The notes beneath the pieces were generated by a model that was not told where the DNA came from, made no database searches, and saw only the letters and a program-made list of their open reading frames with translations. Below are positions 1-64,000 of a DNA stretch of 64,000 nt, one piece after another. The translations under genes were made by a program, and so were the position numbers. Origin of the DNA: an uncultured virus (IMG/VR IMGVR_UViG_3300026484_000088) (taxonomy: Duplodnaviria; Heunggongvirae; Uroviricota; Caudoviricetes); the IMG/VR virus record IMGVR_UViG_3300026484_000088; one strand, 5' to 3'. Numbering within the stretch: the stretch's first letter is position 1; each line of letters begins with the position of its first letter.

Positions 1-122
1 AACAAAACAATATAAATTAAGATGTAATTGTCAAGATTAAGATATAGTCTGGTCTTTAGTGAAAACTAAAGCTGCAGGTGATGCTGCGGAGTAAGAGTAA
101 CGACCTTACTTGAACATAAACG
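1..122 (+). mobile_element. Group I intron, 3' part, interrupting the primase gene
   Basis: S element AAGATATAGTCT (39-50); P9 hairpin CTTTAGT-GAAA-ACTAAAG (54-71); further P9-type stems; terminal G at 122 followed in frame by AAA GGG AAA TCT (KGKS). Confidence 0.85.
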
Positions 123-2054
123 AAAGGGAAATCTATAAATATCATAGAAAATGATATTTTAAGGGGTTTTAAGGATAAGTTTATCAAAGAGGTATTACCA
201 ACACAAGTTGAGAAGAGTTTGGCTAAAATAGCCTCTGAGAGAGCAAGTATTGCTGGTTTGGATCCAGATGAAGTATATCAGAATTTGATTAGAGAATATA
301 AAGGTACAGGACCGTTCTTATTTAACTTTGATGGTGGTACAGCAGCAGCAATTAAACAACTAAGACATAAATTATTACTGGCTGGTTTAGGTGCTATGAA
401 TTTAGAAATGGATGAAGTAGGTGCTAATTTATCAGCTAATATAGATATGCTTAATGTATTTATTGAGTTGTATGATGTAGGTAAAGTAAAACCTAAGATT
501 ACTAAAAATACTCAAGAAAATAAAAGAAATGAAAGTATAGACGGAATAACACCTGCTAATGTATTATTATTTGGTACTCCAAGTAAATTATTAGATGGTG
601 GAAAAACTGAGCAAGAGTTTTATAGTCTTTTAGATATGGGATATGCGAGAAGAATGTTATTTGCTTATATGCCTAAAATATCTAAAGAGAAACTATCAGC
701 TAAAGAAAAACTAGATATGCTTAGAGATAAATCTTCTGGTTTATTCATAGAAACTCTATATAAACACTTTGAAAAATTAGCTATTGATACTAATATAAAT
801 AAGAAACTATTTGTTAGAGATGATTATCTATTAAAATTATTAGAATATCAGGCTTATTGTGAAGAAAGAGCAGAAGCATTAAAAGAACATCAGGAAATGG
901 AAAAAGCTGAAATTATGCATAGATATTTTAGAGCATTAAAACTTTCAGGAGCATATGCTTTTATAGAAGAATCAGAAGAAGTTAAATTAGAACACTTACA
1001 ACAAGCTATTAAATTAGTAGAAGATAGTGGTATTGCCTTTAGAAATATTCTTAAAAGAGAAAAGACTTATGTTAAATTAGCTAAATATGTAGCAGAATTA
1101 GATGAAGATGTTACTCATGCTGATTTACACGAAGATTTACCTTTCTATAAAGGAAGTACTGCTACTAAAAAGGAAATGTTAGATTTAGCTATTGCTTGGG
1201 GATATAAACATTCTATTATTATTAAAAAAAGAATAGTAGATGGTATAGAATTTCTAAGTGGAGAAGCTTTAAAAGAGTTTGATCCAGAAAATGTGATACT
1301 AAGTTATTCAACTGATATGACTTATAATTATAAAAATGTAAATGTAAATTGGGTAGATTTACCTAAATTATTTACAAGTGATAATTTACACTGGATCAAT
1401 CATCATTTAAAAGATGGAGATAAAAGTGAGGGACATAGAGCAACTATTAATGCTTTACCTGGTTCAAATTTAGTAGTATTAGATGTAGATGGTGGAACTA
1501 AGTTAGAAATGGCTAAAGAGTTATTAAAAGAGTATACTTATTATATTTATACTACTAAAAGACATGATCCAAAAGGTGAACATCGATTTAGGGTAATATT
1601 ACCTTTAACACATGAAGTAAAATTAGGTGCTGAAGAGTATAAAGATTTTATGAATAGAATATTTAATTGGTTACCATTTGAAGTAGATTCAGCAAGTAAT
1701 CAGATAGTTAAAAAATGGTTAACTAATAAAGATGCAATAGTTTATTTTAATGAAGGAGAGTTAATGAATGCTATGTTATTTATACCACATACTAAAAAAG
1801 CTGATGAATTATCTCATGATAGAGCATTAATTAGTTCTATGAGTAATTTAGAAGCTTGGTTTTATAAAGAATGGAAAGATGGAAATAGAAATAAAGCATT
1901 ATTTAGATATGCTATGGTTCTTAAGGATAATGGTTATGATTTAGTATCTATTAAAAATGCAATATTTGAATTTAATAGAAAAACGCCTGATCCATTAGAA
2001 GAAACAGAAATATATGATTCTGTTATGGTTACGTTAGCTAAAGAGTTTAAATAA
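123..2054 (+). CDS. N4-like DNA primase, 3' exon (ATPase-like N-region, AEP-like primase, PriCT-like C-terminus)
   Basis: Frame is open from 120; KGKSINIIE (tail of P-loop), LEMDEVG, LLFGTPSKLLDG, GYARR, VVLDVDG, YTTKRH, RFRVILP, GNRNKALF; N4-type position before AAA and SSB genes. Confidence 0.85.
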   Translation, partial: KGKSINIIENDILRGFKDKFIKEVLPTQVEKSLAKIASERASIAGLDPDEVYQNLIREYKGTGPFLFNFDGGTAAAIKQLRHKLLLAGLGAMNLEMDEVGANLSANIDMLNVFIELYDVGKVKPKITKNTQENKRNESIDGITPANVLLFGTPSKLLDGGKTEQEFYSLLDMGYARRMLFAYMPKISKEKLSAKEKLDMLRDKSSGLFIETLYKHFEKLAIDTNINKKLFVRDDYLLKLLEYQAYCEERAEALKEHQEMEKAEIMHRYFRALKLSGAYAFIEESEEVKLEHLQQAIKLVEDSGIAFRNILKREKTYVKLAKYVAELDEDVTHADLHEDLPFYKGSTATKKEMLDLAIAWGYKHSIIIKKRIVDGIEFLSGEALKEFDPENVILSYSTDMTYNYKNVNVNWVDLPKLFTSDNLHWINHHLKDGDKSEGHRATINALPGSNLVVLDVDGGTKLEMAKELLKEYTYYIYTTKRHDPKGEHRFRVILPLTHEVKLGAEEYKDFMNRIFNWLPFEVDSASNQIVKKWLTNKDAIVYFNEGELMNAMLFIPHTKKADELSHDRALISSMSNLEAWFYKEWKDGNRNKALFRYAMVLKDNGYDLVSIKNAIFEFNRKTPDPLEETEIYDSVMVTLAKEFK

Positions 2055-2067
2055 GGAGGTAAAAATA

Positions 2068-2265
2068 TTGAAATTTGAAGAAATAGAAAAAGAATATATG
2101 GAATTCTTGGATAAAGTATATAGTGATTTACTTAATACTTATCCAAGTATTGTTATTAAAGCATATTTAGATGAAAATATGTGGGAAGAAAAAGTAATTG
2201 AATTTGGTAAAAATGCATTAGATATTGATACCGAACCAGAAGAAGATGAAGATTTATATATCTAA
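2068..2265 (+). CDS. Hypothetical acidic protein
   Basis: 65-aa ORF with strong RBS AGGAGGT, TTG start. Confidence 0.6.
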   Translation: MKFEEIEKEYMEFLDKVYSDLLNTYPSIVIKAYLDENMWEEKVIEFGKNALDIDTEPEEDEDLYI

Positions 2266-2274
2266 GGAGATTAA

Positions 2275-3000
2275 ATGGATAATAGAATAGTATTAGTAAT
2301 GGGCGTTCCGGCCAGTGGAAAGACGCTCAGTTTAAGAAATTTAAAAAACCCAGAAGGAGTATTATATTTAAACTTTGATGGTAAAGGTTTACCTTTTAAT
2401 AATAAATTTAAAGAAATAAAAGTAAAAGATGTAGCTGAAACTTTAAATTATCTTGATGCAGTAAGTGAGAGAGAAGATATACATACAGTTGTATTAGATA
2501 CACTTACTTATATGATGGATCAATATGAAACTCAATATGTAGTGTATAGTTCTAATACGATGAAATCATGGTCAGATTATCAGCAATTCTATAAACAAGT
2601 ATTACATAAATGTAAAATGAGTGGTAAAAATGTTATAGTATTGGCTCATAGTGATACAGTTATGAATGATACTGAAATGGTGTTAGAAACAAAAGTACCT
2701 ATTAAAGGGGCTATTGCTAGGAGAGGAGTTGAAGCTGACTTTGAAGTTATTTTATCAAGTAAAACAATACCTTTAAAGAAATTAGAGTATTTAGGTAAAA
2801 CACCTTTATTACAACCAGAATCAACAGATGAACAATTTGGTTTTAAGTATGTATTTCAAACTATGATAGATAAAGATACTATAAATGAAAAAATGAGAGC
2901 GCCATTAGGTTTTTGGAAATATCCAGAAGAAAAATATATTAATAACGATTTACAATTAGTTATTGATAAATTAAATAATTATTTCGGAAAACCAGAATAA
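2275..3000 (+). CDS. AAA-family ATPase (Sak4-like, N4 gp44-like)
   Basis: Walker A GVPASGKT, VVLDTLT, GVEADF; synteny. Confidence 0.85.
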   Translation: MDNRIVLVMGVPASGKTLSLRNLKNPEGVLYLNFDGKGLPFNNKFKEIKVKDVAETLNYLDAVSEREDIHTVVLDTLTYMMDQYETQYVVYSSNTMKSWSDYQQFYKQVLHKCKMSGKNVIVLAHSDTVMNDTEMVLETKVPIKGAIARRGVEADFEVILSSKTIPLKKLEYLGKTPLLQPESTDEQFGFKYVFQTMIDKDTINEKMRAPLGFWKYPEEKYINNDLQLVIDKLNNYFGKPE

Positions 3001-3003
3001 AAC

Positions 3004-3031
3004 TTGACAAATTAAAAAATTCTGATATAAT
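3004..3031 (+). promoter_or_regulatory. Sigma70-type promoter
   Basis: TTGACA-16nt-TATAAT with extended TG. Confidence 0.75.
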
Positions 3032-3194
3032 TAGAACATCCAATGTTCATTGCGATGTTCTAAAATAATATCAATTAATAAAAAAATCTATTTAATAGAG
3101 TCAAGTTTATAAGTTAGCCAACCACTTTATCTTCTTGGCTCTCTTAAGTAGCTTTAAAAAGATAGAAGGTTGGCAACTTCTACTGACTACTTAA
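3031..3194 (+). ncRNA. Putative structured leader or ncRNA with loop-loop complementarity
   Basis: Three stems (3031-3063, 3097-3142, 3144-3194); loop 3111-3123 is complementary to 3168-3179. Confidence 0.5.
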
Positions 3195-3216
3195 ATATTT
3201 ATCGCTAAAGGTATAT

Positions 3217-3813
3217 ATGTTAAATTTTAAAGATATGGCTTTCACAGCTACAGGGAGTTATATTATGTTAGGGGATCTTATACCCAAAAATAAAGTAACT
3301 TTGTTACATGGAAAAAGTGGTGCAGGTAAAACATTAAGTATTATTAAATACTTTGAAAATTTAGAAATTGAACCAGTATTGATAGACTTTGATGACAATA
3401 TAAGTTATTCTACAAGAAAAATTATTCATTTAGATGGTTATAAATTCTTAGATTATTATCTATCAGATAAAACTCAAGAAGAAGTATTAGATTTATTAAA
3501 AGGAAAAGTAGTAATTATAGATACTTATGCTAAATGTAATCTTGCTTTAGAGGAAAGAGAAGTAAAACTTAAAACTCAAGATGTAGCAACAAAATTAAGT
3601 GACTATGGAATTACTGTAGTAGTTATAGCACATAGTAATATATTTGCAGGTAAAGCACCTGAACCAGATACAGATATTGTATTTGCTAATCATGTTGCTT
3701 GTAGATTATTTTTAAATTTTAAAATAGTTAAAAAGAAACCAGAAATACAATTAATTATAGAAAAATTAAGAAATAAACCAACAGATATTATAGAAAATTG
3801 GATGAGAGATTGA
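3217..3813 (+). CDS. P-loop NTPase (RecA/AAA-like)
   Basis: GKSGAGKT, VVIIDT, VVVIAH, IEKLRN. Confidence 0.7.
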   Translation: MLNFKDMAFTATGSYIMLGDLIPKNKVTLLHGKSGAGKTLSIIKYFENLEIEPVLIDFDDNISYSTRKIIHLDGYKFLDYYLSDKTQEEVLDLLKGKVVIIDTYAKCNLALEEREVKLKTQDVATKLSDYGITVVVIAHSNIFAGKAPEPDTDIVFANHVACRLFLNFKIVKKKPEIQLIIEKLRNKPTDIIENWMRD

Positions 3814-3820
3814 TTCTCTC

Positions 3821-3855
3821 TGGTTCGGTAGCACATAGAACCACTAAAAGCTACC
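3821..3855 (+). promoter_or_regulatory. H-type pseudoknot in the ssb leader
   Basis: Interleaved perfect 6-bp stems TGGTTC/GAACCA and GGTAGC/GCTACC. Confidence 0.6.
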
Positions 3856-3889
3856 ACATTTAAAAATAAAATAAACACAAGGAGAGATA

Positions 3890-4564
3890 ATGGGTATTTT
3901 TAGTATTCCAAAAGATGTAGAAAAAGAAGAAGTAAAAGATAGTTTAGGTGGCGGAAATTTTGTATGGGACACAGGTGTATATGATGTGAAAATTACAAGA
4001 GCATTTATTGATAAATCTAGAGGTGGAGCAATTAGTGTTAATTTAACATTAGAAACACCAGAAGGTAAGAAATTAGATTTAACAGAATATGTAACTAATA
4101 GAGAAGGTGTAAACTTTTATGTAGATAAAAAAACAGGTAAAAAGAAATTATTACCAGGATTAGCTAAAATGAATGGTTTAGCAGAGTTATTAGTAGGTAA
4201 ACCATTAGAAGAGTGTGAACTTGAAGAAAAGATGGTAGAAATATATGACTTTGATGCAGGTAAAAGAGTTGCAAGACCTAAACAAGTAATTATGGATCTT
4301 TTAAATATACCAGCTAAAGTAGGTATTGTTAAAGTAATTGATTGGAAAAATCAAGATAAAACAGAAACTAAAGAAAAGAATGAATTAAACAAAGTATTTG
4401 ATGAGAAGGGATTTACATTAGCAGAAAAAACTGCAGGAGAAGAGACACCTAAATTCATTGAAAAATATAAAGAAAGCAGAACAGCTGATTATGTAAAAGA
4501 TAAAACAGGTGGAAAAGCTAAACCATCAACAAGTAAAAATAAAGATAAAAAGTTACCATTTTAA
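3890..4564 (+). CDS. ssb: Single-stranded DNA-binding protein (N4 gp45-like)
   Basis: DSLGGG..DTGVY, SRGGA, NFY, LPG, IYDFDA; C-terminal LPF; synteny. Confidence 0.8.
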   Translation: MGIFSIPKDVEKEEVKDSLGGGNFVWDTGVYDVKITRAFIDKSRGGAISVNLTLETPEGKKLDLTEYVTNREGVNFYVDKKTGKKKLLPGLAKMNGLAELLVGKPLEECELEEKMVEIYDFDAGKRVARPKQVIMDLLNIPAKVGIVKVIDWKNQDKTETKEKNELNKVFDEKGFTLAEKTAGEETPKFIEKYKESRTADYVKDKTGGKAKPSTSKNKDKKLPF

Positions 4565-9976: not shown

Positions 9977-10174
9977 ATGTTAAAAATACTTAAATCAATA
10001 TTTTTTACTATCCTAATAATAGGATTATTAGTAGCTGGGATATTTTCTGGTTATATATTATTACTTTTATTTGTAGGTGGACTAGTATTTTTATTTACAT
10101 ATGCTTTTATAGCAGATACTACTTCTTCATGGTTCAAGAAAGAAGATCCATTTGATTACTATATGAGAGATTAA
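9977..10174 (+). CDS. Small membrane protein
   Basis: Long hydrophobic N-terminal stretch; convergent with vRNAP as in N4-like phages. Confidence 0.6.
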   Translation: MLKILKSIFFTILIIGLLVAGIFSGYILLLLFVGGLVFLFTYAFIADTTSSWFKKEDPFDYYMRD

Positions 10175-13100
10175 TATCTCTCTATAGCTGGTTCAATTAA
10201 TTGTTTTAACGCTTCTTCAGGATTTAAAGCTCTTGCACTTAAAGCTGTAGATATATCTGTAGTATATGTTTCATATATTTCTGGTATATCTATAATTTCA
10301 TTTATACCTCCTAATTTAATAGCACCTTTAAGATTTCTTCTAATAATATTACCTATTACTTTAGGTGTTTGTAAATAAAATTTACTAAACATAAATAATC
10401 CTACATTAGATAAATATTTAAGATATTTATTCTCATTAATATTATAATTAATAAATGTAGCATCTGCTTCTAATAAAGCTTGTTTTTCAGTATATCCATT
10501 ATTTTTTAAATGTTCGTATAGAGTTGCTTTAGCTACTGCATCACTATACTGCATTACTTTTAACATTTTAGTAAATAAGCTATCATTCTGATTAACCCAA
10601 AGAGTATCTATAATAGATTTTACTTTTTTAGGTAAATATTTATTTAAAGCTTTATTAGTTTTATCTCTAACTATATTAGTGTCTAAATCATCTATATCAA
10701 TAGCATCTTCAATAATTGACCCTATTAATCCATTCTGAACCAGAGGATATAAAGGATTTTTACTAACAGAGTCTTTTAATATTTTTAATCTTGATCTTTC
10801 TTTAGAATTTAAAGGTTGTAATTTTCTTAATACTTCTAATCTTCTTATTTCATCTTGTTCTTTATGTAATTTATCATAGTATAACCAATGTTTTCTAAAT
10901 GATTGAATAATTTGTTTCGTACTCATAAATTCAGTTAATACAAAGAAGTTAGAAGCAAAGTTACTATATAATACAGGTAGATTAGTTACTGCAATAGCAG
11001 GTTTAACTAATTTTATTACATCTCTCCATAATTTTTCAGCTATTTTTAATTTAGCTTTTACTGGTTCAGGTAATTTATTTACTAATAAAGCATTTACTAT
11101 AGTAGGATCTTTATATCCAAATACATCATTTATAAGTCTTTTATGTACATATATAGGTTGATCACCATATATTTCTATTAAATCTTTTTTAGTGTATTTA
11201 GGTATAATCTTCCATAAATCTTCATTTTCTTTAATATTGATATATTGATTTTTATATTTATCTTTAGCATACATTACTTTTAATGTTTTAAAGAGTTTTT
11301 TATTTAATTCTCTACCATTTACTTTTAAAGAATTATGTGCATGTGTATTAGCTAATACTTCATCTATATCAGTTACCCCACCTTTATAAGATTGTTCTCC
11401 TAATTGAGTACCTAATAATCTATAATCTACTATATTTCCATTTGGGTCTAATACAGGTATATATTTTAATTCATCAATATTATTTGCTGGATTAAAGTCT
11501 TCTGATATTTCAGGATTTGATATTCTTTCTGTGTGTATTTTTTGGTTAATTACTATTTCAGATACTGCACCTAATTCTTTTTGGTGTTTAAGAGTATCAC
11601 CTGCTATATTAAATTGTGTTACTTCCATCATACTTTTAGTATAATCAGTAGATGTATTAATTCTTTTCATCATCACTACTTTATCACCTGTTAAAGGATC
11701 TTTATAGTTAGTTTCTACTGGTTCCATATAAGATAGTTTTTTAAAATAATCAACTTTACTTTTAGGTATATAAATATATTCATATTGATGATTCTTTTTA
11801 GGATTTATATGTCCTTTTATTTTATGTAGTTCTTCATCTTTTGTAAATAATTTATCTTGATCTTTTTTAATAGTATTTCTAATAAAGTTTACTAATTCAG
11901 TAAAATCTTTAGATCTACTTATCATATATTCGGCAGTTACTGAATAACTATGTGGATCCAGATAGTTAATACTATATAATGTAATTAATTCATCTATTTC
12001 TTTAGTATAGTCTTTAGATAATTTACTTAAAGTACCAGTTTTATCAAATAATAAATTATTTATATTATTAGCATTTAACATCATATTATTTATAGTAGTT
12101 TTTCCTGTAGATAAGAAATAACCTAAAGCTTTAACTTGATTAATAACAGCTTGTCCTGTAATACCTTCAGCTTTTAATTGTTCTTCTATTTTAGATATTC
12201 TTTCATTTCTATCTTCTCTATTTAAGAAATATCTTTTCATAGTTTTAATATGTCCTATAGATAATAGATCAGTCTTTAATATGCCATTAGTTAATCCTAT
12301 TTTTTGTGATTTATTAAGACCTTTTAATAGAGTTTTATTCAATAAATCAATAGTAGTTTTTTCTACATCATTTCTCACTTTTTCTTGTTCATATTTAGCT
12401 TTAGAGTAGAGTAAATAAAAATCTTTCCAAGAAGCATTACCTATAGCTACTTCTTTCCAAACATCACCTATTATATTTAAGAGGTCTATATTTAATTTAC
12501 CAGATATTTTATTTATTTTTCTAGCTATTTTCTGGATACCTTCTTTTTCTAACATTTTATTACTTGCTTCTTTTACAACTTTATTTAGATCAGTCATAGA
12601 TTTTTTCCATTGTTCATTTAATATATTTAAACCAGAATATTTATATATTTTAGAAGTTAATTTAGTTTCTATGTCTTGTGGGCTTTTACCTCTGTATAAT
12701 TGATTAGTCATATGTACTGCTGTAATTAAAGTATCTTGTAATTCTTTAGATACATTAGGATTAGATTTAAAAATACTACTATGTATTTTATTAATAATAT
12801 CAATAACTTTATTAAATAAATAATGTAATATGTTTTGTTCTTTAATATTATTTAATAATTTAATATTAGATTTGAATTTATTAGAATTAATATAATCTCT
12901 TAAATGTTTATTAGTTAAAGCAATAGTAAAGAATTCTTCTGGATTACCTTGAATATACTCAAATAAAGCTCTTGATTGTTCTCTTTCTAAAGGTGATGGA
13001 TCTTCTGAATTAGTGAAGAATGTTTCTGGATCTATACTAGGATCTTTTAATAGTTTATCCATTACTGCTTGTTGTAATTGATATATTTTAGTTGCTAATT

Positions 13101-16100
13101 TACTATCTTTTTTAAATGCTAAGTGAGTCATTAAGTGCGTAAGTTCATGTAAGAATATTTCTTTCTCTGATTGAATAGAAGTATACTTACCTGAAGATAT
13201 TTTAATTTTAGATTTACTTAAAGCAGTCATTGATATATGTGCTGAACCAGAGTTAAATCTACTATTGATATATTGAGATATATTTAATTTATCTGCTATA
13301 TCAAAGAAAGAAACAATTAACCCTGAGAAAAGAGATGTATCAGATTCATCCATAAGACCTTCTAAATTTGTTTCTAAAAAGTTTTTAGCTTCTTCAGGTG
13401 ATGTAAGTACTAAATCACTATTCTTTGGACCAGAAGAAGTAAATGGAGAAGAATTAAGGGTATCATCACTAAATAATGAGTTTTGTTTATATATTTGTTG
13501 TTTAGATGGTGAAGATTCAACAATTTCAGTATCTGTTATATTTTCTATTTGGTTTTGTAAATTATTATACTCTTCTGTTAAAATATCGTCTACTTTTTTA
13601 TATAAATTAGGATTATTTAATATATTTAGTTTACTTAATTTTATAGCAAGATTATGTATTTTATCTAAATCATTCATAAGTAAATATTGTTTTATTAATT
13701 GTAAACTTTTATATAAAGTTTGGTAATTAGATATCCCCTCTTTATTTACAGTCATTTTAACAATCATAGCAGCATCATCTTTATTTACACCTAATTTAAC
13801 CAAATTTTCTACTAACTTTTTTCTTTCAGTTAAACTACTACCTGTAATATCTTTTAGTATTTCATCAATATTTTGTATATTTGTTATATTAGTATTTGTT
13901 TCGTCTGTTGGTTTAGTTATACTATTTATTTCATTATTATCAGTTGAATTATCTATAATAATATCTTTATTAGTGTTATTTTCTTTACCACCATTAGGAT
14001 TAGTAGGTTGTTTATTAGCTATATGTTTAACTATATTAAACATAGATTGTTTTAATTCTTCAGCATTATTGTATGGTTTCTTTTTAGCACCTTTATAATC
14101 TTCTAATTGACTTGATCCTATAAATGCATTATATCTACTTGTTTTAACATCTTTTAATTCAACAGGTGTAAATATATGTGTTTCTGGATCCAGTTGATAT
14201 AATTTATTATCATTAGAATTTAAAATGTATATAGTTTTTTTCATATTATGTGTATTGTGTAACCACATTGCTAATTTAACTGCTGATCTAGTACCACTAT
14301 CACCAAGTGTATTACTTATTGGATCAATAGGCATAACAGCAAATATAGTATCTGCATTATATATTTGTAAATAATTTCTATTATTTAAGTCATGTGTATT
14401 ATTATTTAATTCTTTGTTTATACTTTTACCTATATTATTTTCATTTTCAGAAGCTTTTGTTATAGTTATAGTTTTATCAGTTTTTTGTGCTTCTTTTAAC
14501 CAACTTACCGCATCATATGATATAGGTAATATGTGGACATTATTTACTTTATTCCCAAAAAACTTAGTTAAATATGATGACCATATATGATCAGCACCCC
14601 AAGCTCCACCTGTATAATTATTTATAATTACATTTTTTGGATCTAACTGAGAGTTAGTAGTTCTATCATTCTTATCAGGTTTTATATTTGATTTATCATT
14701 TATATCAACAACATCTAAACTATCTAATAATTGATCTACTAATATATCTTTATGTCTCATACTATTTAATTCTGCAATAAGTCTTTTCTCACTAATAGTT
14801 TCATTTTCTATCAAATCATCTATTTTATCTTTTAAATTATTTATTAACATTTGTTTTAACATATCTATAAATACTTTATTTTCTTGATATGTAAGTTCTT
14901 TTATATTATTTAAAGAATTAGTTTGGTTTTTAGTTAAATATTCAGTATTTGCATCTAATGAATTATCATAGATACCAGGTGTAGTTTCATCATATGACTG
15001 ACTTATATAATATTGTCCTGATAATACTTTCTTATCAAATATATCTTTATATACTTCTTGAAATTGTTCTTTTAAATTATTATCTTCAAACATTTTATAT
15101 ACTTGAGTCATTTGATTTATAAATTCTGTAAGTTTATTCATAGAATTAATTTTATTTATTTCTTCAAATAATACGACTTTTAATTCATTAAACATTTTAG
15201 TTAATGCTTTCTCTCTTTCTGAACCAGTGAAAGTTTCATTTATAGTTTCTATTTGTTTACTTAACTTATCTACTAAATTTAATACTGTATTTCTTTTAGT
15301 GGCTGTATCAACAGTAGCTTTATTAATTTTAAACATATTATTAGATATAGTATTAGCATCAGAAGGGAGTACTAAAGCATCGAATATTTGTAGTACTAAA
15401 TTAACATCTTCTTCAGTTATAAGAGTATCTTGTATATTTCTACTATCAAACTCGTGGATAGTAGTTACCCCAACTGCTCTTTCATTATGTTCAGGTAGTT
15501 TAAAGTCTTCATTAGCCCCTACACTTAAATTTTTAAGCTTAGTGTTTTTAGATATATAAATATGAGCATTAGTTCTTTCTCCAGTATTTAAATCAGTTTT
15601 TTCATTTAATTCTAAAGGTAAATAATTATTTTCATTAATTAATGATACAGTATCAAACCCTAAACCAGAATTAATTAAATCTTGTTTTATATAGTTTAAT
15701 TCTTCTTTAGTAAGTGTTTTTAATAATGCAATTAATTCTTTTTTAGATTCTTCTATATTCTCATTAGTTTGAAAAATAGCATCTTCAGGAATTATTAATT
15801 TTCCATCTTTTTCGGTAGGAGCATAAATATTATTTAATTTTTCTGTTAAAGCTTCCATATTATATTTATTTTTAAGAAATGTAAATACTCTATGTTTTAA
15901 TGCAAATAAACTTACACCATATGATATTTTATGAAGACCTTTTAAATTATTTCTATAATCTTCAATAAAATTATAAGGTTTAAAAGCTTCTTTTAATACA
16001 GGTCTATATAATGTTTTAAATTCACTTTCTAACATTCTTTCAGTAAAAGATCCAAATTTAAAATGACTAATAGGTAATGAACCAGAAATATAAGCAGTTA

Positions 16101-18927
16101 ATAAATCTTTACTATTAAGATCTTTATTTAATCCTTTTTTTAATAATTTTAGTTTAGTTACATAATTTTTATAGTTTGGTTCATTAGTTTCATTAGCTAA
16201 TTCAGTATAAGTATTTATTAAGTTATCTAATTCTTCTTGTACTTTATTTAAATCTTCTAAAGTATTTATATAAACTTTAGTTAAACTTTCACTGAATGGA
16301 TCAAATAGATTAAATTCTAAATTAAAGTTTTTATTATTTTCATATAAGTTAGTTAATATTGTTTTCATATCTGTTTGAGTTTGTTCATCTAAATCATTAA
16401 AATATACTAATACTTTATTTCCTGAATCAGCTTTACGAGCATTTAAAATAGCTTTATAGTATTTATCTTTAAATCCAGTATTATAAAATTTACTTAAAAT
16501 AGACTCTAATTTAGCTCCATAAATTTGGACCATTTGTAATGGTTTAGCATCACTTCTTGTTAATGCTTCACCTACTATATTTAATATAGCTTGTTTATGT
16601 TCTATAAGTTCTCCATTTTTATCGAATAAAATTCTTCCTTTTAGACCTTCTAAAGAACTATTTATATTTTTAGATAAAGTATTATAAAAGTCTAACATAC
16701 CATTTGATAACATATCTGCATGTGTTAATATACCTTGTTTAAATTTTTCCTTTAATTCTTCAGGTAAATTACTATTTTTAATATATTCTTCAGTATATAT
16801 ACCCCCTTTAGATAATAATTCTTGAATATGTTTTAATATATTATTTTTTTCTGTTTTATTATTACTATTATAATAAGCATGCCCTAATGATTGTAATAAT
16901 GTAAGTATCATACCATTTGTAATACCATCAGCTTCTTGAGGTAAGTCTGTTGTAAAATCAGATGTTTGTTTAGTTTCTATATGTCTTTGTAATTTATTTA
17001 ATTCTTTTAGAGCATGTAATGTATATATCTTTTCTTCTGAACCAGTAAAATTAGAAAGCTCTTTCATTGCTGGTTTATTATTAATCAATAGATTTCCATT
17101 TCCGTCAAATGAGTTATATAAAAGACTTTTAACTTTCATAAGTTTAGAATCTTCTACATTTTCTCCTGATAATATAGCTTTTAAATCTTCTATTGCTTGG
17201 TTCATTTCATTAATAGTAAGTTTATCAACATCATACCCAAAAGCTTGTAATGCACTAATATAGAAAGGATTTAACATTTCTGAATTATATTCATCAGTTA
17301 ATTTAATATTTGTTATTGCTTTTTCTTTTCTGAGTAAGTGTCTATGTATTTTATCATTCTGATCATTAATAGGTCCTTCTTGCATAATCCTACCATTACC
17401 TACTTCTCTATGATGCATATAAATACCTTTTTGTATCATATCATCATATATTTCTAAATTATCTATTGATAATTCTATTTCTCTATTTTTAGATAATTCA
17501 AATAATTTATTAAATTCTAAATATTCATTTAAATCAATATACCCTGCCATTTGCATAGCTAATTCTTTATCTATTTTAACTAATCTCATAAAATCATCAT
17601 ATAAACTATTCTTTACATGTTTAGTATTATTTTCCATTTCTATATATCTTTCTGTTTGAGAAGATATTTCATAATTTTCATGTTTTTTAATTGTAAAATC
17701 TACTTGTTTTATAGGTTTACTACTTGGCTCTTTTACTTTTGTGTTTAAGTTTAATAGTCTTTGTAAAGTTGAAGCATATGCTTTAAATGTTTTAGTTATA
17801 TCTGAATTAGTAGTAGTTTTACCTGTTTTACTATTTACTAATTTATAAACATTATAAGATAATTTATTACTATCAGTATGTGTTATCTGACTTCTTTGTA
17901 ATTTAACTTTATCACCTATATTAATTTCAGATAGTAACTTTAAAGACATATTACCTATAATACCTTTTATCTGATTTACTTCACCTATTGTATAATCTAC
18001 AGAGTTTTCTTTAAGACCTAAAAAATTAAATATATGATCACCTAAAAAAGTTTCTAGTTCTTTAGTAGGGAAACCTTTCTCTTGGAATTCATTTACATAT
18101 TTATAAAAAGTACTTACTTCCATATTTGTCATTGCATCTTCTGCATCGTTATACCCTAATACTTTAGCTACATAATCAGCAGTAATACTACTTGGATCAA
18201 TTACTTGAGCCATGAATGAGGGAAGTATATGTTTAAGTGCTTTTATATATACAGGACTTAAAGTATAATTATTATTTTCATCTTTAATAAAAAAAGGCAA
18301 TAATAATTTATCTACTATATTAGTTTCATCTGGATCAAATACAATATTATTTAATTCTTTTTCTATTTGATTATAATTAATAATATTTGTATTATCATTA
18401 GTTTGATCCAGATAATTAAATACTTTATTAAAAGCTTCTTGTATTTCATTTACTTTAGCACTATTTTTTGGATACGTATTAATTATCTCTTCTTGAAATA
18501 AGTTTAATATCTCTTTATCTGATTTACCATCAATAATAGCTTCATGAATTTTAATTAATAAATCATTACTTAATTTATCTGAAAGAACAGGACTAACTTT
18601 AGATTTATCAGTAGTATTATTATAATAAGTTTGAACCAAGAGATTACCTAATATATTTTGGTTTTCTGAAGATAAATCAAACCCTTCAGACTCATATAAT
18701 TTTTTAATTTTATTTAATCTTTTAGCTATTAATTTTTTAGCTTTATTTAATTTAGTAATTTTATTTTCTGTATTTAATAGTTCTTGATATTTATTTAATA
18801 CTTTAACAAAGTCTTTCTGTTTAGTTTTTTTAAGAAGTAATTTAGCTTCTTTTAATTTATTATATTCTTCTAAGTATTTATTAGTTTTATTTAATAATTT
18901 ATTTATAGTACTACATGATAAACCCAT
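10171..18927 (-). CDS. Virion-encapsidated RNA polymerase (N4 vRNAP-like), 2918 aa
   Basis: GNGRIMQ, QNDKIHR, motif A EADGITNG, motif B RSDAKPLQMVQIYG, motif C IFDA; zincin-like HELTH; SLOG-like insert. Confidence 0.9.
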   Translation of the reverse strand: MGLSCSTINKLLNKTNKYLEEYNKLKEAKLLLKKTKQKDFVKVLNKYQELLNTENKITKLNKAKKLIAKRLNKIKKLYESEGFDLSSENQNILGNLLVQTYYNNTTDKSKVSPVLSDKLSNDLLIKIHEAIIDGKSDKEILNLFQEEIINTYPKNSAKVNEIQEAFNKVFNYLDQTNDNTNIINYNQIEKELNNIVFDPDETNIVDKLLLPFFIKDENNNYTLSPVYIKALKHILPSFMAQVIDPSSITADYVAKVLGYNDAEDAMTNMEVSTFYKYVNEFQEKGFPTKELETFLGDHIFNFLGLKENSVDYTIGEVNQIKGIIGNMSLKLLSEINIGDKVKLQRSQITHTDSNKLSYNVYKLVNSKTGKTTTNSDITKTFKAYASTLQRLLNLNTKVKEPSSKPIKQVDFTIKKHENYEISSQTERYIEMENNTKHVKNSLYDDFMRLVKIDKELAMQMAGYIDLNEYLEFNKLFELSKNREIELSIDNLEIYDDMIQKGIYMHHREVGNGRIMQEGPINDQNDKIHRHLLRKEKAITNIKLTDEYNSEMLNPFYISALQAFGYDVDKLTINEMNQAIEDLKAILSGENVEDSKLMKVKSLLYNSFDGNGNLLINNKPAMKELSNFTGSEEKIYTLHALKELNKLQRHIETKQTSDFTTDLPQEADGITNGMILTLLQSLGHAYYNSNNKTEKNNILKHIQELLSKGGIYTEEYIKNSNLPEELKEKFKQGILTHADMLSNGMLDFYNTLSKNINSSLEGLKGRILFDKNGELIEHKQAILNIVGEALTRSDAKPLQMVQIYGAKLESILSKFYNTGFKDKYYKAILNARKADSGNKVLVYFNDLDEQTQTDMKTILTNLYENNKNFNLEFNLFDPFSESLTKVYINTLEDLNKVQEELDNLINTYTELANETNEPNYKNYVTKLKLLKKGLNKDLNSKDLLTAYISGSLPISHFKFGSFTERMLESEFKTLYRPVLKEAFKPYNFIEDYRNNLKGLHKISYGVSLFALKHRVFTFLKNKYNMEALTEKLNNIYAPTEKDGKLIIPEDAIFQTNENIEESKKELIALLKTLTKEELNYIKQDLINSGLGFDTVSLINENNYLPLELNEKTDLNTGERTNAHIYISKNTKLKNLSVGANEDFKLPEHNERAVGVTTIHEFDSRNIQDTLITEEDVNLVLQIFDALVLPSDANTISNNMFKINKATVDTATKRNTVLNLVDKLSKQIETINETFTGSEREKALTKMFNELKVVLFEEINKINSMNKLTEFINQMTQVYKMFEDNNLKEQFQEVYKDIFDKKVLSGQYYISQSYDETTPGIYDNSLDANTEYLTKNQTNSLNNIKELTYQENKVFIDMLKQMLINNLKDKIDDLIENETISEKRLIAELNSMRHKDILVDQLLDSLDVVDINDKSNIKPDKNDRTTNSQLDPKNVIINNYTGGAWGADHIWSSYLTKFFGNKVNNVHILPISYDAVSWLKEAQKTDKTITITKASENENNIGKSINKELNNNTHDLNNRNYLQIYNADTIFAVMPIDPISNTLGDSGTRSAVKLAMWLHNTHNMKKTIYILNSNDNKLYQLDPETHIFTPVELKDVKTSRYNAFIGSSQLEDYKGAKKKPYNNAEELKQSMFNIVKHIANKQPTNPNGGKENNTNKDIIIDNSTDNNEINSITKPTDETNTNITNIQNIDEILKDITGSSLTERKKLVENLVKLGVNKDDAAMIVKMTVNKEGISNYQTLYKSLQLIKQYLLMNDLDKIHNLAIKLSKLNILNNPNLYKKVDDILTEEYNNLQNQIENITDTEIVESSPSKQQIYKQNSLFSDDTLNSSPFTSSGPKNSDLVLTSPEEAKNFLETNLEGLMDESDTSLFSGLIVSFFDIADKLNISQYINSRFNSGSAHISMTALSKSKIKISSGKYTSIQSEKEIFLHELTHLMTHLAFKKDSKLATKIYQLQQAVMDKLLKDPSIDPETFFTNSEDPSPLEREQSRALFEYIQGNPEEFFTIALTNKHLRDYINSNKFKSNIKLLNNIKEQNILHYLFNKVIDIINKIHSSIFKSNPNVSKELQDTLITAVHMTNQLYRGKSPQDIETKLTSKIYKYSGLNILNEQWKKSMTDLNKVVKEASNKMLEKEGIQKIARKINKISGKLNIDLLNIIGDVWKEVAIGNASWKDFYLLYSKAKYEQEKVRNDVEKTTIDLLNKTLLKGLNKSQKIGLTNGILKTDLLSIGHIKTMKRYFLNREDRNERISKIEEQLKAEGITGQAVINQVKALGYFLSTGKTTINNMMLNANNINNLLFDKTGTLSKLSKDYTKEIDELITLYSINYLDPHSYSVTAEYMISRSKDFTELVNFIRNTIKKDQDKLFTKDEELHKIKGHINPKKNHQYEYIYIPKSKVDYFKKLSYMEPVETNYKDPLTGDKVVMMKRINTSTDYTKSMMEVTQFNIAGDTLKHQKELGAVSEIVINQKIHTERISNPEISEDFNPANNIDELKYIPVLDPNGNIVDYRLLGTQLGEQSYKGGVTDIDEVLANTHAHNSLKVNGRELNKKLFKTLKVMYAKDKYKNQYINIKENEDLWKIIPKYTKKDLIEIYGDQPIYVHKRLINDVFGYKDPTIVNALLVNKLPEPVKAKLKIAEKLWRDVIKLVKPAIAVTNLPVLYSNFASNFFVLTEFMSTKQIIQSFRKHWLYYDKLHKEQDEIRRLEVLRKLQPLNSKERSRLKILKDSVSKNPLYPLVQNGLIGSIIEDAIDIDDLDTNIVRDKTNKALNKYLPKKVKSIIDTLWVNQNDSLFTKMLKVMQYSDAVAKATLYEHLKNNGYTEKQALLEADATFINYNINENKYLKYLSNVGLFMFSKFYLQTPKVIGNIIRRNLKGAIKLGGINEIIDIPEIYETYTTDISTALSARALNPEEALKQLIEPAIERY

Positions 18928-26558: not shown

Positions 26559-26563
26559 TAATA

Positions 26564-26621: not shown

Positions 26622-26648
26622 AAGGAAAAAGAACCAGAAAAGGTTCTA
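26622..26648 (-). terminator. Rho-independent terminator after the capsid gene
   Basis: AGAACC-TTTTCT-GGTTCT followed by TTTT on the minus strand. Confidence 0.6.
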
Positions 26649-48040: not shown

Positions 48041-48349
48041 GTATTAGTCCTTTATTAGTTTTTAGTAATTATATCCTATACTTATTTAAAATTTACAAAA
48101 ATAAACTAATGAATATATCTATAATTGCTTATACCGACATTTTTATATTTTATATATACAAAAACCATTAAAAACATAAAACTTTTAAAATATAAGCAAA
48201 TATGAGCCATTAATTAATATATTTATAATTACTGAACCAGAGAAAAGATATAAGGGACCAGAAAGAGTGTATTAGATGTATCCGGATTAGAATTTATTGG
48301 TTCTAGCTGAGACTAGGTTTAAAAAATTAGCAGCTTTTATAAAATTATT

Positions 48350-48403
48350 ATAATTTAGTATGATTGTAAAAAACTTTAATATGAATTTAATAATTTAGTA
48401 TGA
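48350..48403. repeat. Direct repeat ATAATTTAGTATGA x2, 40-bp period
   Basis: Copies at 48350-48363 and 48390-48403. Confidence 0.6.
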
Positions 48404-48448
48404 CTGAGGTATATTCTATATACCCAATCAGTTTCGTAAGTATCCCCC

Positions 48449-48484
48449 CTACGTATGTTATTATAGAGAAATTAAATTAAGGAG
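48449..48484 (+). promoter_or_regulatory. Repeated early-region element, copy 1 (putative phage RNAP promoter plus RBS)
   Basis: CTACGTATGTTATTATAGAGAAATTAAATTAAGGAG; near-identical copy at 48687. Confidence 0.6.
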
Positions 48485-48490
48485 TATATC

Positions 48491-48634
48491 ATGACAGACA
48501 TTATCAGTATAGCATTAGCTTTCATCACATTAGGACTATTCAAGAAACAAGCAAGTAGTGGTGTAGATGTAGTAACAGACAGCTTTGATAAAGTTATTAA
48601 ATCTATCAATAAATTAGGGGAAGATAATAAATAA
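48491..48634 (+). CDS. Small early membrane protein (47 aa, not in the ORF track)
   Basis: AAGGAG RBS; MTDIISIALAFITLGLFKK...; followed by a hairpin and T-run. Confidence 0.6.
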   Translation: MTDIISIALAFITLGLFKKQASSGVDVVTDSFDKVIKSINKLGEDNK

Positions 48635-48686
48635 TCTTCTCTTATTTATTTTTTAATTTAGTAGTAAGTAGTTTTAGATAGGATAA

Positions 48687-48724
48687 CTACGTATGTTACT
48701 ATAAAGAAATTAAATTAAAAGGAG
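48687..48724 (+). promoter_or_regulatory. Repeated early-region element, copy 2
   Basis: CTACGTATGTTACTATAAAGAAATTAAATTAAAAGGAG. Confidence 0.6.
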
Positions 48725-48729
48725 CAATT

Positions 48730-48942
48730 ATGGAAAAAATTGATACACTAAAATTAATTAAGGAAGCTTTAAATTTCCTTGAAACAAATGATAATTTGGG
48801 TCCAAGCGATCCATGTGGAATTATTTTCGATTTAAAAAACAATTCATTTGAAATCATTAGTAGAAATTCAATTGAATATCCAGAAAGAATGATGGATAGA
48901 TTTCAATTAAGAAAGATTATAGACACATCAGAGAAACTCTGA
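48730..48942 (+). CDS. Small early protein
   Basis: 70-aa ORF with RBS. Confidence 0.6.
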   Translation: MEKIDTLKLIKEALNFLETNDNLGPSDPCGIIFDLKNNSFEIISRNSIEYPERMMDRFQLRKIIDTSEKL

Positions 48943-48962
48943 TGTGTCTATTTCTCTTTTTT
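48919..48962 (+). terminator. Rho-independent terminator
   Basis: 15-bp perfect stem ATAGACACATCAGAG-AAA-CTCTGATGTGTCTAT plus T-rich tail. Confidence 0.8.
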
Positions 48963-49230
48963 ATGATCCAGAGATTAAATAGGTATATATAAGAAGATTA
49001 GATAGATAATTAATTTATTATAATTCTCACTTAATTCTTAAATATTTCTTAACTCTAATACTTTACTAATATCCTATTACTTTAAGTTTTCTTTAAGAAG
49101 GGTTAAATAGATAGGTAGGTTAGATAAGTAATTACTTAAGAAGTCCTTGTTTAAGGTATTTTAGTAATAAAAGTAGTATAATTTAAAGAAACTTTCTCTG
49201 AAAGAATTTCTTTCAAGGAAATTTCTTGAA

Positions 49231-49258
49231 ATTATACTATATTTTTTAAATTTGTCAA
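49231..49258 (-). promoter_or_regulatory. Leftward sigma70-type promoter
   Basis: TTGACA-16nt-TATAAT on the minus strand. Confidence 0.6.
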
Positions 49259-49461
49259 GTCTATCTTATCTTTTGAACCAGAAATCATAAATCAACAATT
49301 CGATATCTCTTCAATTTATCTAACCTTTCACTAATACATTCTTTACGCTACGCTTGTTTCTTTAAGAATTAGTAGTTAGTTAGTTTAGTTGGTTCTAGTG
49401 GAACCAGTAAAAATTACATAGGTTATTATAAAGAAATAAAATTAAAATTAAAGGAGCTATT

Positions 49462-49689
49462 ATGGCTAAACAAACAACAGAATTTTCTAAATTCAAACTA
49501 AGTTATGAGGGAGAATTAATGGGGTATTTTAATACTCCATTAGATATCACAAAAGAAGAAGCATTACAGCTTCTTCAAGCTACTATTGATAATTTAGACA
49601 TTGAAGTAGCAGTTAGCAAGCCTAAAGGAAGTAAATTACTTTCTATTATAGGTAAAAAAGATACATCAAGTAAATCAGAGACTTTTTAG
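49462..49689 (+). CDS. Small early protein
   Basis: 75-aa ORF preceded by a variant of the repeated element (49414) and an RBS. Confidence 0.6.
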   Translation: MAKQTTEFSKFKLSYEGELMGYFNTPLDITKEEALQLLQATIDNLDIEVAVSKPKGSKLLSIIGKKDTSSKSETF

Positions 49690-49855
49690 TCTTCTGTATT
49701 TTATTTTTTTAAGATATAGAACCAGAGTAAATAATATATCTCTACGGATTAAGAGATAGGTTAGTAGTTTTCTCCTACGGTTGTTTCTTCTTTGCCTACG
49801 GCTGTTTCTATAGAGAGTTATTTAATAGCTCTAAATTAAAATTAAAGGATTTACA

Positions 49856-55086: not shown

Positions 55087-55195
55087 TAACATATCGGGGG
55101 TCCTAAATAGAAATATTTAGGTAATAATGGTATCTAATTCAGGGAAAGCTAAGTCGTAAGATATGCTAATCCTGAGCCAAGACTTAAATTCCTTA

Positions 55196-55224
55196 TTGAC
55201 TTCTATCCTTTTTTAGTATATAAT
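55196..55224 (+). promoter_or_regulatory. Intron-internal promoter for the HNH gene
   Basis: TTGACT-17nt-TATAAT. Confidence 0.7.
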
Positions 55225-55257
55225 CATAATTGATTACACTAATACAAAGGATAGATA

Positions 55258-55800
55258 ATGATAGAAAAGTTAATTAATGGTTATAATGGTATATATAAAA
55301 TAGATGATAAAGGTAATGTATATACTAAATATAAACCTAAAACAGGTAAAATATGGGATAAATGGACTAAATTAAAATGGGTTTTAGATAAACATATTGG
55401 TTATTATTTAGTTACATTAGTGCATCCAATAACTAAAAAAAGAACTAATAAGTTTATTCATAGACTTTTAATGGAATCTTTTGTTCCTAATCCAGATCCT
55501 AAAAAATATAAGCATGTAAATCATATTGATGGTAATAAAGAAAACAATCAATTAAATAATCTTGAATGGGTAACCCCAAAAGAAAATACAAGACATGCTA
55601 TTAAATTAGGTTTAAATAAACCAGGTGAAGCAAGTAAAAAAGCTATAAAACAAATAGACTTAAATACTGGTGATGTTATTGCTGAATTTGAATCAGCAAG
55701 AGAAGCAAATAGACTTACTGGAATTGCTCACCAAAATATTAGTAAAGTTTTACGAGGTTTACGAAAACATGCTGGAGGATATTTTTGGGAATTTAAGTAA
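55258..55800 (+). CDS. Intron-encoded HNH homing endonuclease (NUMOD4-HNH-NUMOD1 type)
   Basis: GYNGIYKI, IHRLL, VNHIDGNKENN..NLEWVT..EN, FESAREA..ISKV..KHAGGYFW. Confidence 0.9.
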   Translation: MIEKLINGYNGIYKIDDKGNVYTKYKPKTGKIWDKWTKLKWVLDKHIGYYLVTLVHPITKKRTNKFIHRLLMESFVPNPDPKKYKHVNHIDGNKENNQLNNLEWVTPKENTRHAIKLGLNKPGEASKKAIKQIDLNTGDVIAEFESAREANRLTGIAHQNISKVLRGLRKHAGGYFWEFK

Positions 55801-55952
55801 GGTGCAGAGACTATCTCCGTACGGAGAGTAGGGAAGTAAGTGATTGACTTCTCGAAACGGTACCTATCTTAACAGGTAAAGCTGAAGATAAAGATATAGT
55901 CCGACACTCCAAGAAATTGGAGAGACAGAGTAGCGTCTGTCGTAACTGATTG

Positions 55953-56763
55953 CGAAGATCGTATAGTTGCTAACTTAAGTAATGATCCTATGAAAATAGG
56001 TGTATTTACTAAAGGTATTGATGGACATAGTCTAAATGCAGCAGGTTACTTTAAAGAAGAATTAGAATCTCGTGGAATATTTATAGATATGAATGATCCA
56101 GAGAGTATAAATTCTGTAAAGAAATTAGCTAAAGATTTAAGACAAGAAAGTAAGACATATACCTTTGGAATGAATTACGGTCAAGAAGCTCCTGGAATGG
56201 CTAAAAGTCAAGGTATTCCATTAGAAAAAGCAGAGAAAATAGTAGAAGGTTATAAAAATACTTATAGAGTAATGATTGAATGGAATGAAAGTAATAAAAA
56301 ATTTATGAATGAAAATGGATATGTTAGAGGTTGTTGGGGACATAAAATTAAAACACCTTTAATAAAAATGTCTATTATTAATTCAAGAATTACTCCATCA
56401 AATATAAAAGCTGAATTTAGAACAGCCAATAATGCTATTACTCAAAGTTATGGAATACTTACTACTATTGCTGGTTCAAGGTTTCAAGATTTATTAGAGA
56501 AATCACCATATAAATATGATGTATTTTTAATAAATCAAATTCATGATGCTATATATTTATTAGTTAAAAATGATCCAGAAGTAGTAAAATGGGTTAATAA
56601 TAATTTAATAAATACTATGTGTATGATGGATGAACCAAGATTAATAGATGCTCCTGTAAAATTAGAAGCAGAATTAGATATTGGAAAATCTTGGGATAAA
56701 CAAGTAACTCTAAAAAATAATATTTCTATTAAAGAAATAGAAAAACAATTAAACACTTTTTAA
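55953..56763 (+). CDS. polA: Family A DNA polymerase, exon 2
   Basis: EDRI, DGHSLNA, motif B RQESKTYTFGMNYG, motif C QIHDAIY. Confidence 0.9.
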
Positions 56764-62906: not shown

Positions 62907-62909
62907 ATA

Positions 62910-63521
62910 ATGGCTAGAAAAAAAACTAAACAAGAAAAATTGTTTAAGAATGAAAAATATAAAAAAGATTTAGTTTATTTATATTTAATTTATGCTTATT
63001 TAGATATAGGTTTAAGAGAAGAAGAATGGGTAATATCTAATAAGTTTGGAGTAAATGTTATAAATGAATTAAAGTTAAAAAATCATTCAGAAAAAACTCA
63101 ATTAGATATAAAGAAATTATATGCTACTACTAAAAGGATATTTAAGTATTTAATGCAAGAAGGTGTATTTAACAATAAAAAAATTAAAGGTGATCTAATT
63201 ATTAAACTTGCTGAAATTGAGATAAATAAAGCTTTTAGTGGTTATAAAGATTGTTCTATTATACCTATTTATTTAGGAATATTATTACTTATTTCTTGGC
63301 AAGAAGATGTTAAATATAAATCATTTAATATGTCATTAGATTATAATTATTTAGCTGATATAACACTTGCTATTGAAGAAGAACATCAAGAATTAAAAGA
63401 AATATTAGATAGAAGTGCTGATATAGTATATCATTTTTATAAAAATATATATGGTGAGTATTCTTGGTTCAAAGAATCAGGTAATGTAGATTTAAAAGAA
63501 TTATTTGGTAAAAAGGATTAA
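62910..63521 (+). CDS. Hypothetical protein
   Basis: 203-aa ORF with RBS. Confidence 0.55.
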   Translation: MARKKTKQEKLFKNEKYKKDLVYLYLIYAYLDIGLREEEWVISNKFGVNVINELKLKNHSEKTQLDIKKLYATTKRIFKYLMQEGVFNNKKIKGDLIIKLAEIEINKAFSGYKDCSIIPIYLGILLLISWQEDVKYKSFNMSLDYNYLADITLAIEEEHQELKEILDRSADIVYHFYKNIYGEYSWFKESGNVDLKELFGKKD

Positions 63522-63523
63522 AA

Positions 63524-63847
63524 ATGTTAGAAGTAGAAGCAAGAGATCCAGAAGAAGCATTTGATAATATAGATATAGAAGATGCTATTGAAGAAATGTT
63601 AGATAATGGTTCTACTACTATAGATGTAAAATTTGGAGAATGTAGACCTTATGTATATAAAGAAAGTGATGATTGTGAATGGTTTGATTTAGGAGAAATA
63701 GAAGTAACTGATAAAGACCTGAATATTGACTGGTTCGAAATAGCAAGTGATTTAAAATTAAAGTTAGAAGAATGTGAGCGTAATATGTCTAAATGTGTAC
63801 AAAATATGATAACAATAAAAGAAGATAGTATAAGGAGTGAAATATGA
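63524..63847 (+). CDS. Hypothetical acidic protein
   Basis: 107-aa ORF; EVEARDPEEA motif. Confidence 0.55.
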   Translation: MLEVEARDPEEAFDNIDIEDAIEEMLDNGSTTIDVKFGECRPYVYKESDDCEWFDLGEIEVTDKDLNIDWFEIASDLKLKLEECERNMSKCVQNMITIKEDSIRSEI

Positions 63848-64000
63848 AAAAATTTATTTTAACTAAATTAAATGGTATAGATGAAAAAGAATATACTGCT
63901 TATAAATTACAGTGTGAAGAAACTATTGAAGCATTAAATAAAGAAATAAATGAATTAAAAATTAATTTAGATAGACAAAGAAGAAAAATTAGTGCTTTAG
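63844..64000 (+). CDS. Hypothetical protein, truncated by the window end
   Basis: AAGGAG RBS, ATG 63844, open to the end. Confidence 0.5.
   Translation, partial: MKKFILTKLNGIDEKEYTAYKLQCEETIEALNKEINELKINLDRQRRKISAL

Follow-up and report, generated by a model that had tools for sequence, protein, structure and literature searches.

A dispersed, strand-specific heptamer in an N4-like phage genome and its probable reading by a gp43-type helicase-primase

Known primase sites and iterated words

The closest described parallels to the DNA word considered here come from primases that read a short site on their template. For instance, the primase-polymerase of phage NrS-1 is described as reading 5'-TTTGGTTA-3' through its helical bundle and starting at the base upstream (PMC8718748); its site is also given as GTG[A/G], and in both pRN1 and NrS-1 it is the helical bundle that binds the template site (PMC8718748, PMC7102993). 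We describe a heptamer, GAWCCAG (CTGGWTC on the opposite strand), dispersed through 64,000 nucleotides of an uncultured member of the Caudoviricetes (IMG/VR record IMGVR_UViG_3300026484_000088; this whole stretch is hereafter the window), and we consider, at a probability of about 0.6, that the phage's own gp43-type helicase-primase uses it as its recognition site. The NrS-1 site shares a TGGTT core with YTGGWTC, and the NrS-1 enzyme, a primase of the archaeo-eukaryotic type, reads single-stranded DNA by a helical bundle, much as the window protein ends in a PriCT-1 bundle. The two differ, however, in that the helicase part comes first in the window protein, the reverse of the NrS-1 order, with no detectable protein similarity, and in that the NrS-1 site has one or two copies per genome as compared to 103 copies of the word on the window's contig.

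The gp4 primase of phage T7, whose site is (G/T)GGTC, offers a parallel of another kind, a phage helicase-primase whose priming sites are scattered and strand-specific, as we propose here. It belongs, however, to another primase family, its site is shorter, and the excess in T7 (210 vs about 150 expected) is 1.4-fold as compared to 3-10-fold for the GAWCCAG-type word; T7 is in addition a weak control, because T4 shows a similar excess of (G/T)GGTC (183 vs 136-140). Chi, the signal of RecBCD and AddAB, resembles GAWCCAG in being an oriented word of 7-8 bases scattered genome-wide, but it has a host-encoded reader and is enriched in the host genome, neither of which is seen for GAWCCAG (judged from N4 and an E. 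coli sample). The DNA uptake sequence of Neisseria, the uptake signal sequence of the Pasteurellaceae and HIP1 of cyanobacteria are words of cellular genomes linked to competence or methylation, and they too are abundant enough to bias codon and tripeptide use; unlike them, GAWCCAG is phage-specific, non-palindromic and spaced per strand. Set beside these systems, GAWCCAG probably works like a primase recognition site. A search of mostly open-access literature, apart from the original N4 replication papers, found no description of the word. New here are the contrast between same-strand and opposite-strand neighbours, the module swaps in two relatives (G003 and G002), a comparison of primase loci, the coliphage and host controls, and a rival explanation built on gp42 and gp44.

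Abundance, selection and strand behaviour of the word

The window holds 94 copies of GAWCCAG (62 on the plus strand, 32 on the minus strand), where an order-2 Markov model expects about 8.5. Both variants contribute, GAACCAG with 62 copies (40 plus, 22 minus; 4.5 expected) and GATCCAG with 32 (22 plus, 10 minus; 4.0 expected), and CTGGTTC/GAACCAG is the top 7-mer of the window; the weaker variant GAWCCAA occurs 59 times (26 plus, 33 minus). The 69.9-kb contig has 104 GAWCCAG; with the 1098-base terminal overlap counted a single time, the number is 103. An earlier note on this DNA had claimed a genome-wide over-representation, with well over 60 copies at about one per kb; the over-representation and the dispersal on both strands are borne out, while the actual density is higher, ~1.5 per kb (about one per 700 bases, both strands together). 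In a single-base scan G-A-x-C-C-A is strict; position 3 tolerates A and T, and rarely G, and at position 7 the order of preference is G, A, T. The core is GAWCCA. The base 3' of GAWCCAG favours A (38/48 vs 24.7; 14/31 vs 6.5).

A codon or amino-acid artefact as the source of this excess was ruled out by synonymous shuffles. Two frames account for most coding copies, Glu/Asp-Pro-x in sense (48) and x-Gly-Ser in antisense (31), and 300 protein-preserving synonymous shuffles give 28.8 sense copies (standard deviation, sd, 3.4; maximum 40) and 11.7 antisense copies (sd 2.7; maximum 19) as compared to the 52 and 43 observed. Shuffling the codon order lowers the expectation to 10.4 sense and 3.1 antisense copies, and because this is fewer than under synonymous shuffling the amino-acid order is itself biased; SGS, PEE, DPE, TGS and EPE are among the top tripeptides. 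Pro is encoded by CCA in 88 of 101 cases after GAA or GAT and in 165 of 451 elsewhere in the window, CTGGWTC is spelled by 31 of the 42 [STPA]-Gly-Ser triplets, and the near-miss GAWCC[CGT]G is depleted (2 sense copies vs 20.8 in synonymous shuffles). In the 3.7 kb of non-coding DNA 7 copies are present, for which 0.17 are expected (maximum 2 in 2000 shuffles). The earlier note had named counts within the synonymous-shuffle expectation, with no intergenic enrichment, as the outcome that would speak against a selected signal; what we find is an excess in coding and non-coding DNA alike, and we conclude that GAWCCAG is a real, selected word.

Among the individual sites that the note had listed, the overlapping double site at 14184/14187 is present, and the non-coding positions 26631, 48234, 48965, 49275, 49401 and 49719 are GAWCCAG, while those at 48297 and 49389 turn out to be minus-strand GAACCAA. 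The note had also described GAWCCAG as seemingly lacking from probable recent imports: the intron with its HNH gene, the ThyX intein (with approximate borders), the tailspike and YopX together hold 0 copies vs 5.8 expected (P 0.003, pooled), these regions having been picked after inspection of the data and each being too short for significance by itself. The terminase-intein region has one copy.

The word acts one strand at a time, with avoidance between same-strand neighbours and independence between opposite strands, N4 excepted. Across 15 genomes, with the word picked in each by its abundance, same-strand pairs 8-200 bp apart number 306 vs 447 expected (47 vs 98 below 50 bp) and opposite-strand pairs at the same distance 461 vs 433; same-strand pairs fall below expectation in 13 of the 15, and 200 control word sets cluster (ratio 1.31, sd 0.15, minimum 0.91). 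In the window there are 24 same-strand pairs vs 38.3 (strand-label permutation P 0.007 for GAWCCAR), and this spacing, together with the shuffle excess, backs the selected, dispersed DNA signal that had been proposed. The plus-strand gaps of GAWCCAR have a coefficient of variation of 0.71 (P 0.0004); even spacing is significant only for plus-strand GAWCCAR and GAWCCA (2 of 15 tests with P <0.01), not for GAWCCAG alone. The plus strand is favoured by GAWCCAG (68 to 35, P 0.0015) and, less clearly, by GAWCCAR (95 to 70, P 0.06). In coliphage N4 both gene blocks show the plus bias (38 to 24 and 47 to 23), so that transcription does not explain it there. A switch of strand bias along the genome, considered as a mark of an origin, was seen in none of 7 genomes.

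N4-like phages whose hosts are E. coli, Delftia and Rhizobium show an excess of this heptamer, which we take to be a phage-intrinsic word and not a host signal. N4 itself carries 110 GAACCAG (69 plus, 41 minus) and 5/5 of the reversed word, and its coding DNA has 102 copies vs 16/28 when shuffled, as compared to 18 vs 21/18 in E. coli (120 kb of 4.6 Mb), 7 vs 8/6 in T7, 9 vs 9/6 in lambda, 7 vs 12/8 in T4 (80 kb) and 14 vs 13/11 in T5 (80 kb). The Campylobacterota phages SNW-1 and NrS-1 show no word excess. Among 10 cultured phages a related word ranks first or close to first among the 7-mers in PhAPEC5, BUCT194, PEV2, CB4, RHEph16, phiCB2047-B and RG-2014, weak in pYD6-A, and absent from PT11-V19 and AD45-P1. 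Uncultured relatives, chosen by their capsid, carry variant words, namely GATCCAA (G004), AGTACCAA (G006), AGAACCAA (G002, G005) and GAACCACC (G007). A "CTA dialect" was considered for G003, PT11-V19 and AD45 and rejected: the CTA words are enriched, but without same-strand avoidance, and they are also raised in other AT-rich genomes. Only the absence of the CCA word is therefore claimed for these three. We note separately that N4 coding DNA has 0 GATCCAG vs 10-14 expected, while the window uses GATCCAG freely; a Dam-positive host, in which GATC would be avoided, might account for this absence.

The gp43-type primase as candidate reader and its rivals

The primase was not among the options of the earlier note. 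The reading frame of the gp43-type protein is open from ~123, and its true N-terminus is to be sought in the contig end that overlaps (~68735 in genome coordinates). The protein is laid out as a P-loop part (DUF3987 in relatives), invariant acidic and basic primase-like motifs, and a PriCT-1 helical bundle; PriCT_1 scores over the cut-off in the window primase and is found in 61 of 65 aligned proteins, DUF3987 in 38 of the 65. The invariant residues are D422, D424, T445-K447, R456, R458 and D490, and the DxD, TTKRH-like and Asp motifs are what we take to be motifs of archaeo-eukaryotic primases. We infer that the helical-bundle/primase domain reads 5'-YTGGWTC-3' on a single-stranded template and that a primer is started there, probably with an adenine nucleotide, a start with which the excess of A directly after the word is consistent. 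Because the enzyme would need a site of 6-7 bases, the genome would retain one about every 0.7-1 kb per strand, to prime or restart the lagging strand, and would accept amino-acid changes to do so; close same-strand pairs would be scarce because a second site nearby adds little.

In sequence comparisons the word goes with the lineage of the gp43-type primase, not with the capsid or the virion RNA polymerase. G003 has a capsid 73% identical to that of the window and a primase 51% identical to the PT11-V19 type (grouped in the PT11-V19/AD45 clade with support 100/100), and shows no GWWCCA excess (69 vs 64). Conversely, the virion RNA polymerase of G002 is closest to those of G003 and PT11-V19, yet G002 has a strong word and a primase of the other clade. 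Among loci of at least 12 kb (48 of the 80 fetched with an N4-type primase, 13 of the 17 fetched from the sister clade), RA[AGT]CCA exceeds a cut-off of 1.5-fold in 35 of the 48 and in 0 of the 13. Other candidate readers were rejected: the type of virion RNA polymerase does not track the word (G002 vs G003), and RNA polymerase II and PolA fail as well, the word-carrying G002, G006 and G007 having neither RNA polymerase subunit 1 nor PolA that could be found. In G002 the match to the virion RNA polymerase is an open reading frame (ORF) only 868 aa long. The multi-helix-turn-helix (multi-HTH) and Hc1-like proteins that the earlier note had put forward have no tblastn match in 20 other records; with jackhmmer, in a screen that gave no usable rows for several proteins, including the middle of the virion RNA polymerase (its C-terminal part was covered), the Hc1-like protein matches in 2 of 15 genomes and the multi-HTH protein marginally in 1 of 15.

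Several points weigh against the primase as the reader. The NrS-1 site, the nearest precedent, is present in two copies per genome (PMC7102993); we counted one copy in the NrS-1 genome, and the site is neither iterated nor enriched there. The window primase has no PDB match, and its hhalign probability against NrS-1 N300 is 0.4%, with no sequence similarity. Thirteen of the 48 loci with an N4-type primase are not enriched, pYD6-A has such a primase and a weak word, and similar words accompany primases only about 24% identical. Few independent lineage changes lie behind the locus contrast, several of the 13 sister-clade loci being near-duplicates; primase, gp42, gp44 and the single-strand binding protein are inherited together as one module, which confounds covariation; and the G003 contig has no terminase, so that the terminase stands outside the G003 contrast. 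No residue-to-base code emerged from residue-base covariation in sets of 40 and 38 labelled primases. Position 538 is Gln with AARCCA and mostly hydrophobic with GA-CCA, the top column being elsewhere and the labels following the tree, and we regard it as a lead only. As to spacing, 4 of 143 control words nearly reach the motif's same-strand ratio, the avoidance in the window has P 0.07 when GAWCCAG is taken alone, N4 shows none (31 vs 31.3) and that of PhAPEC5 is not significant (P 0.36).

If the gp43-type primase does read the word, genome statistics would have revealed which sequence is read by a central, little characterised enzyme of a large phage family, and a priming site would be strong enough to shape protein sequence in the manner of uptake sequences in competent bacteria. 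The natural dialects would then be matched enzyme-site pairs for the study of how helical-bundle primases read DNA, and would matter for laboratory work that recodes N4-like genomes or adds foreign genes to them. A more general proposal, which we offer tentatively, is that a dense replication code, specific to the strand, runs through N4-like genomes as a heptamer that gp43 reads and that has drifted in its letters between lineages (GAACCAG, GATCCAA, GTACCAA, GAACCAC, AAGCCAA). As a self-signature it might tie the replisome, or a machine of gp42, gp43 and gp44 that processes ends, to the phage's own DNA and penalise imports until they have acquired the word.

Alternatively, the word might be a Chi-like signal of the phage's own, at which the gp43 helicase, a gp42 nuclease of the PD-(D/E)XK type and the gp44 Sak4 annealase, while resecting ends, would switch to recombination or recombination-dependent replication. 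We consider this unlikely, although it accounts for both the strand specificity and the host independence. It stays viable because gp42 and gp44 track the word among complete genomes: both are present in all 12 genomes with a CCA-associated primase (15 tested) and not in G003 or PT11-V19, while AD45 has no more than a marginal gp42 match, and gp42 resembles PDDEXK_1 (E 4e-5, below cut-off), in agreement with the Atlas clusters. Against it, four sister-clade loci are depleted of the word (ratios 0.56-0.72) although they have genes resembling gp44 and gp42 (the latter at E about 1e-17 to 1e-20), and the word, at one every 0.4 kb, is far denser than Chi in E. coli (1008 in 4.6 Mb). To our knowledge there is also no sequence-specific nuclease of the gp42-like type.

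Less probable again is that the word serves packaging or ejection, as a site bound by terminase, portal or an internal protein. Terminase subunits are common to all complete word-carrying genomes, but PT11-V19 and AD45 have the same terminase family and no word, and the word does not follow the capsid in G003, whose portal groups with those of word-bearing phages. The earlier note had named a DNA-coating, ejection or packaging protein as one possible binder; its multi-HTH and Hc1-like candidates are not shared by the word-carrying phages, and the ejection-protein candidates have no match in cultured N4-like phages. At marginally longer odds, the word could be the product of a mutational or repair drive, by sequence-specific editing or biased gene conversion, and not a functional site. 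Such a drive has been proposed for HIP1, and the depletion of near-miss words would fit conversion; it predicts, however, random or clustered copies in place of same-strand avoidance, and neither a methylase nor an editing enzyme was found among the ORFs scanned. A phage DNA modification or other self mark at the word, also put forward in the note, seems very improbable. The word is asymmetric like the methylation sites of type IIG and III systems and many small ORFs are unannotated, but no methylase or modifying enzyme was detected among 72 ORFs compared with PHROGs and Pfam and 44 compared with NCBIfam (unannotated ORFs remain), and a double-stranded mark, which would not tell same-strand from opposite-strand neighbours, misfits spacing confined to one strand. 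Least probable of all is a mimic of a host Chi/AddAB or DNA-uptake signal, the note's protection site: the word of G007 read backwards (GGTGGTTC) does resemble Chi, but N4 has 110 GAACCAG and only 6 Chi, SNW-1 and NrS-1 have no excess, and because E. coli DNA and four other coliphages show none either, such mimicry is excluded for N4 and unlikely for the window.

Genome make-up of the window

The window has the gene set of an N4-like phage (virion RNA polymerase, two-subunit RNA polymerase, gp43-type primase, Sak4, single-strand binding protein, PolA, capsid, portal and terminase), in line with the list of core genes given for N4-like phages, which are related to the Schitoviridae (PMC7650795). 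Features that bear on the word are collected in Table 1; the stretch 48234..49725 is likely the region of the genome ends.

Table 1. Positions of the word and of related features in the window.
Feature	Positions	Strand	Remarks
Dispersed GAWCCAG (94) and GAWCCAA (59)	1..64000	both	core GAWCCA; position 7 G>A; next base A
N4 gp43-type helicase-primase	219..2054	+	proposed reader; PHROG 2135, E 4e-242
Sak4-like annealing protein (gp44-like)	2275..3000	+	replication module
Intergenic GAACCAG	3820..3826	-	
N4-type single-strand binding protein	3890..4564	+	replication module
Virion RNA polymerase	10171..18927	-	family hallmark
Overlapping double site CTGGATCCAG	14184..14193	both	within virion RNA polymerase gene
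Intergenic GAACCAG	26631..26637	+	
Tailspike-like gene	41142..42683	-	without GAWCCAR
Five intergenic GAWCCAG	48234..49725	+	at 48234, 48965, 49275, 49401, 49719
GAACCAA	48297 and 49389	-	interspersed in 48234..49725
Insertion with HNH gene in DNA polymerase gene	55121..55989	+	word-free

On sequence identity the genome is a mosaic. The capsid is 51-92% identical to those of uncultured relatives and about 27% (<31%) to those of cultured phages. For the primase, identity is 40-47% with cultured N4-like phages and only 23-32% with the capsid relatives; we thus read a replication module of cultured N4 type (219-4564, 53475-56763) joined to a capsid module of an uncultured clade (26100-34710). Elsewhere in the capsid clade the primases have diverged strongly, and PolA mostly goes undetected. 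In the window DNA polymerase A is split in three ORFs (53475-56763), an N-terminal piece, an exonuclease-polymerase piece and a C-terminal piece after the HNH-bearing insertion, and the PhAPEC5 polymerase is likewise annotated with an HNH-bearing intron. Intein-like insertions with LAGLIDADG are present in ThyX (5866-7692) and the large terminase (44770-47367). Rfam at the gathering threshold and ARAGORN returned no matches, but at lower stringency the 3' part of a group I intron is recognised at the start of the contig (Intron_gpI of Rfam, 1-71, 32.8 bits, E 9e-7), and this intron (window 1-122) joins the primase gene at the Walker A motif. Because the overlapping contig end carries an intron-free form of the primase gene, variants with and without the intron seem to have been co-assembled.

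A second word, TCAAAA/TTTTGA, is strongly avoided in the window (9 vs 104 expected; 7 vs 95 in synonymous shuffles), where GCAAAA is scarce (8) and CTAG depleted as well. Its avoidance is common to the closest relatives (L001-L003), not to G002-G007, and TCAAAA/TTTTGA is probably avoided as a host restriction or defence site. Finally, the best of 162 matches to the endolysin (39293-39700), at 55% identity, is the peptidase M15 of Sulfurimonas phage SNW-1, which gives a weak hint at a host among the Campylobacterota.

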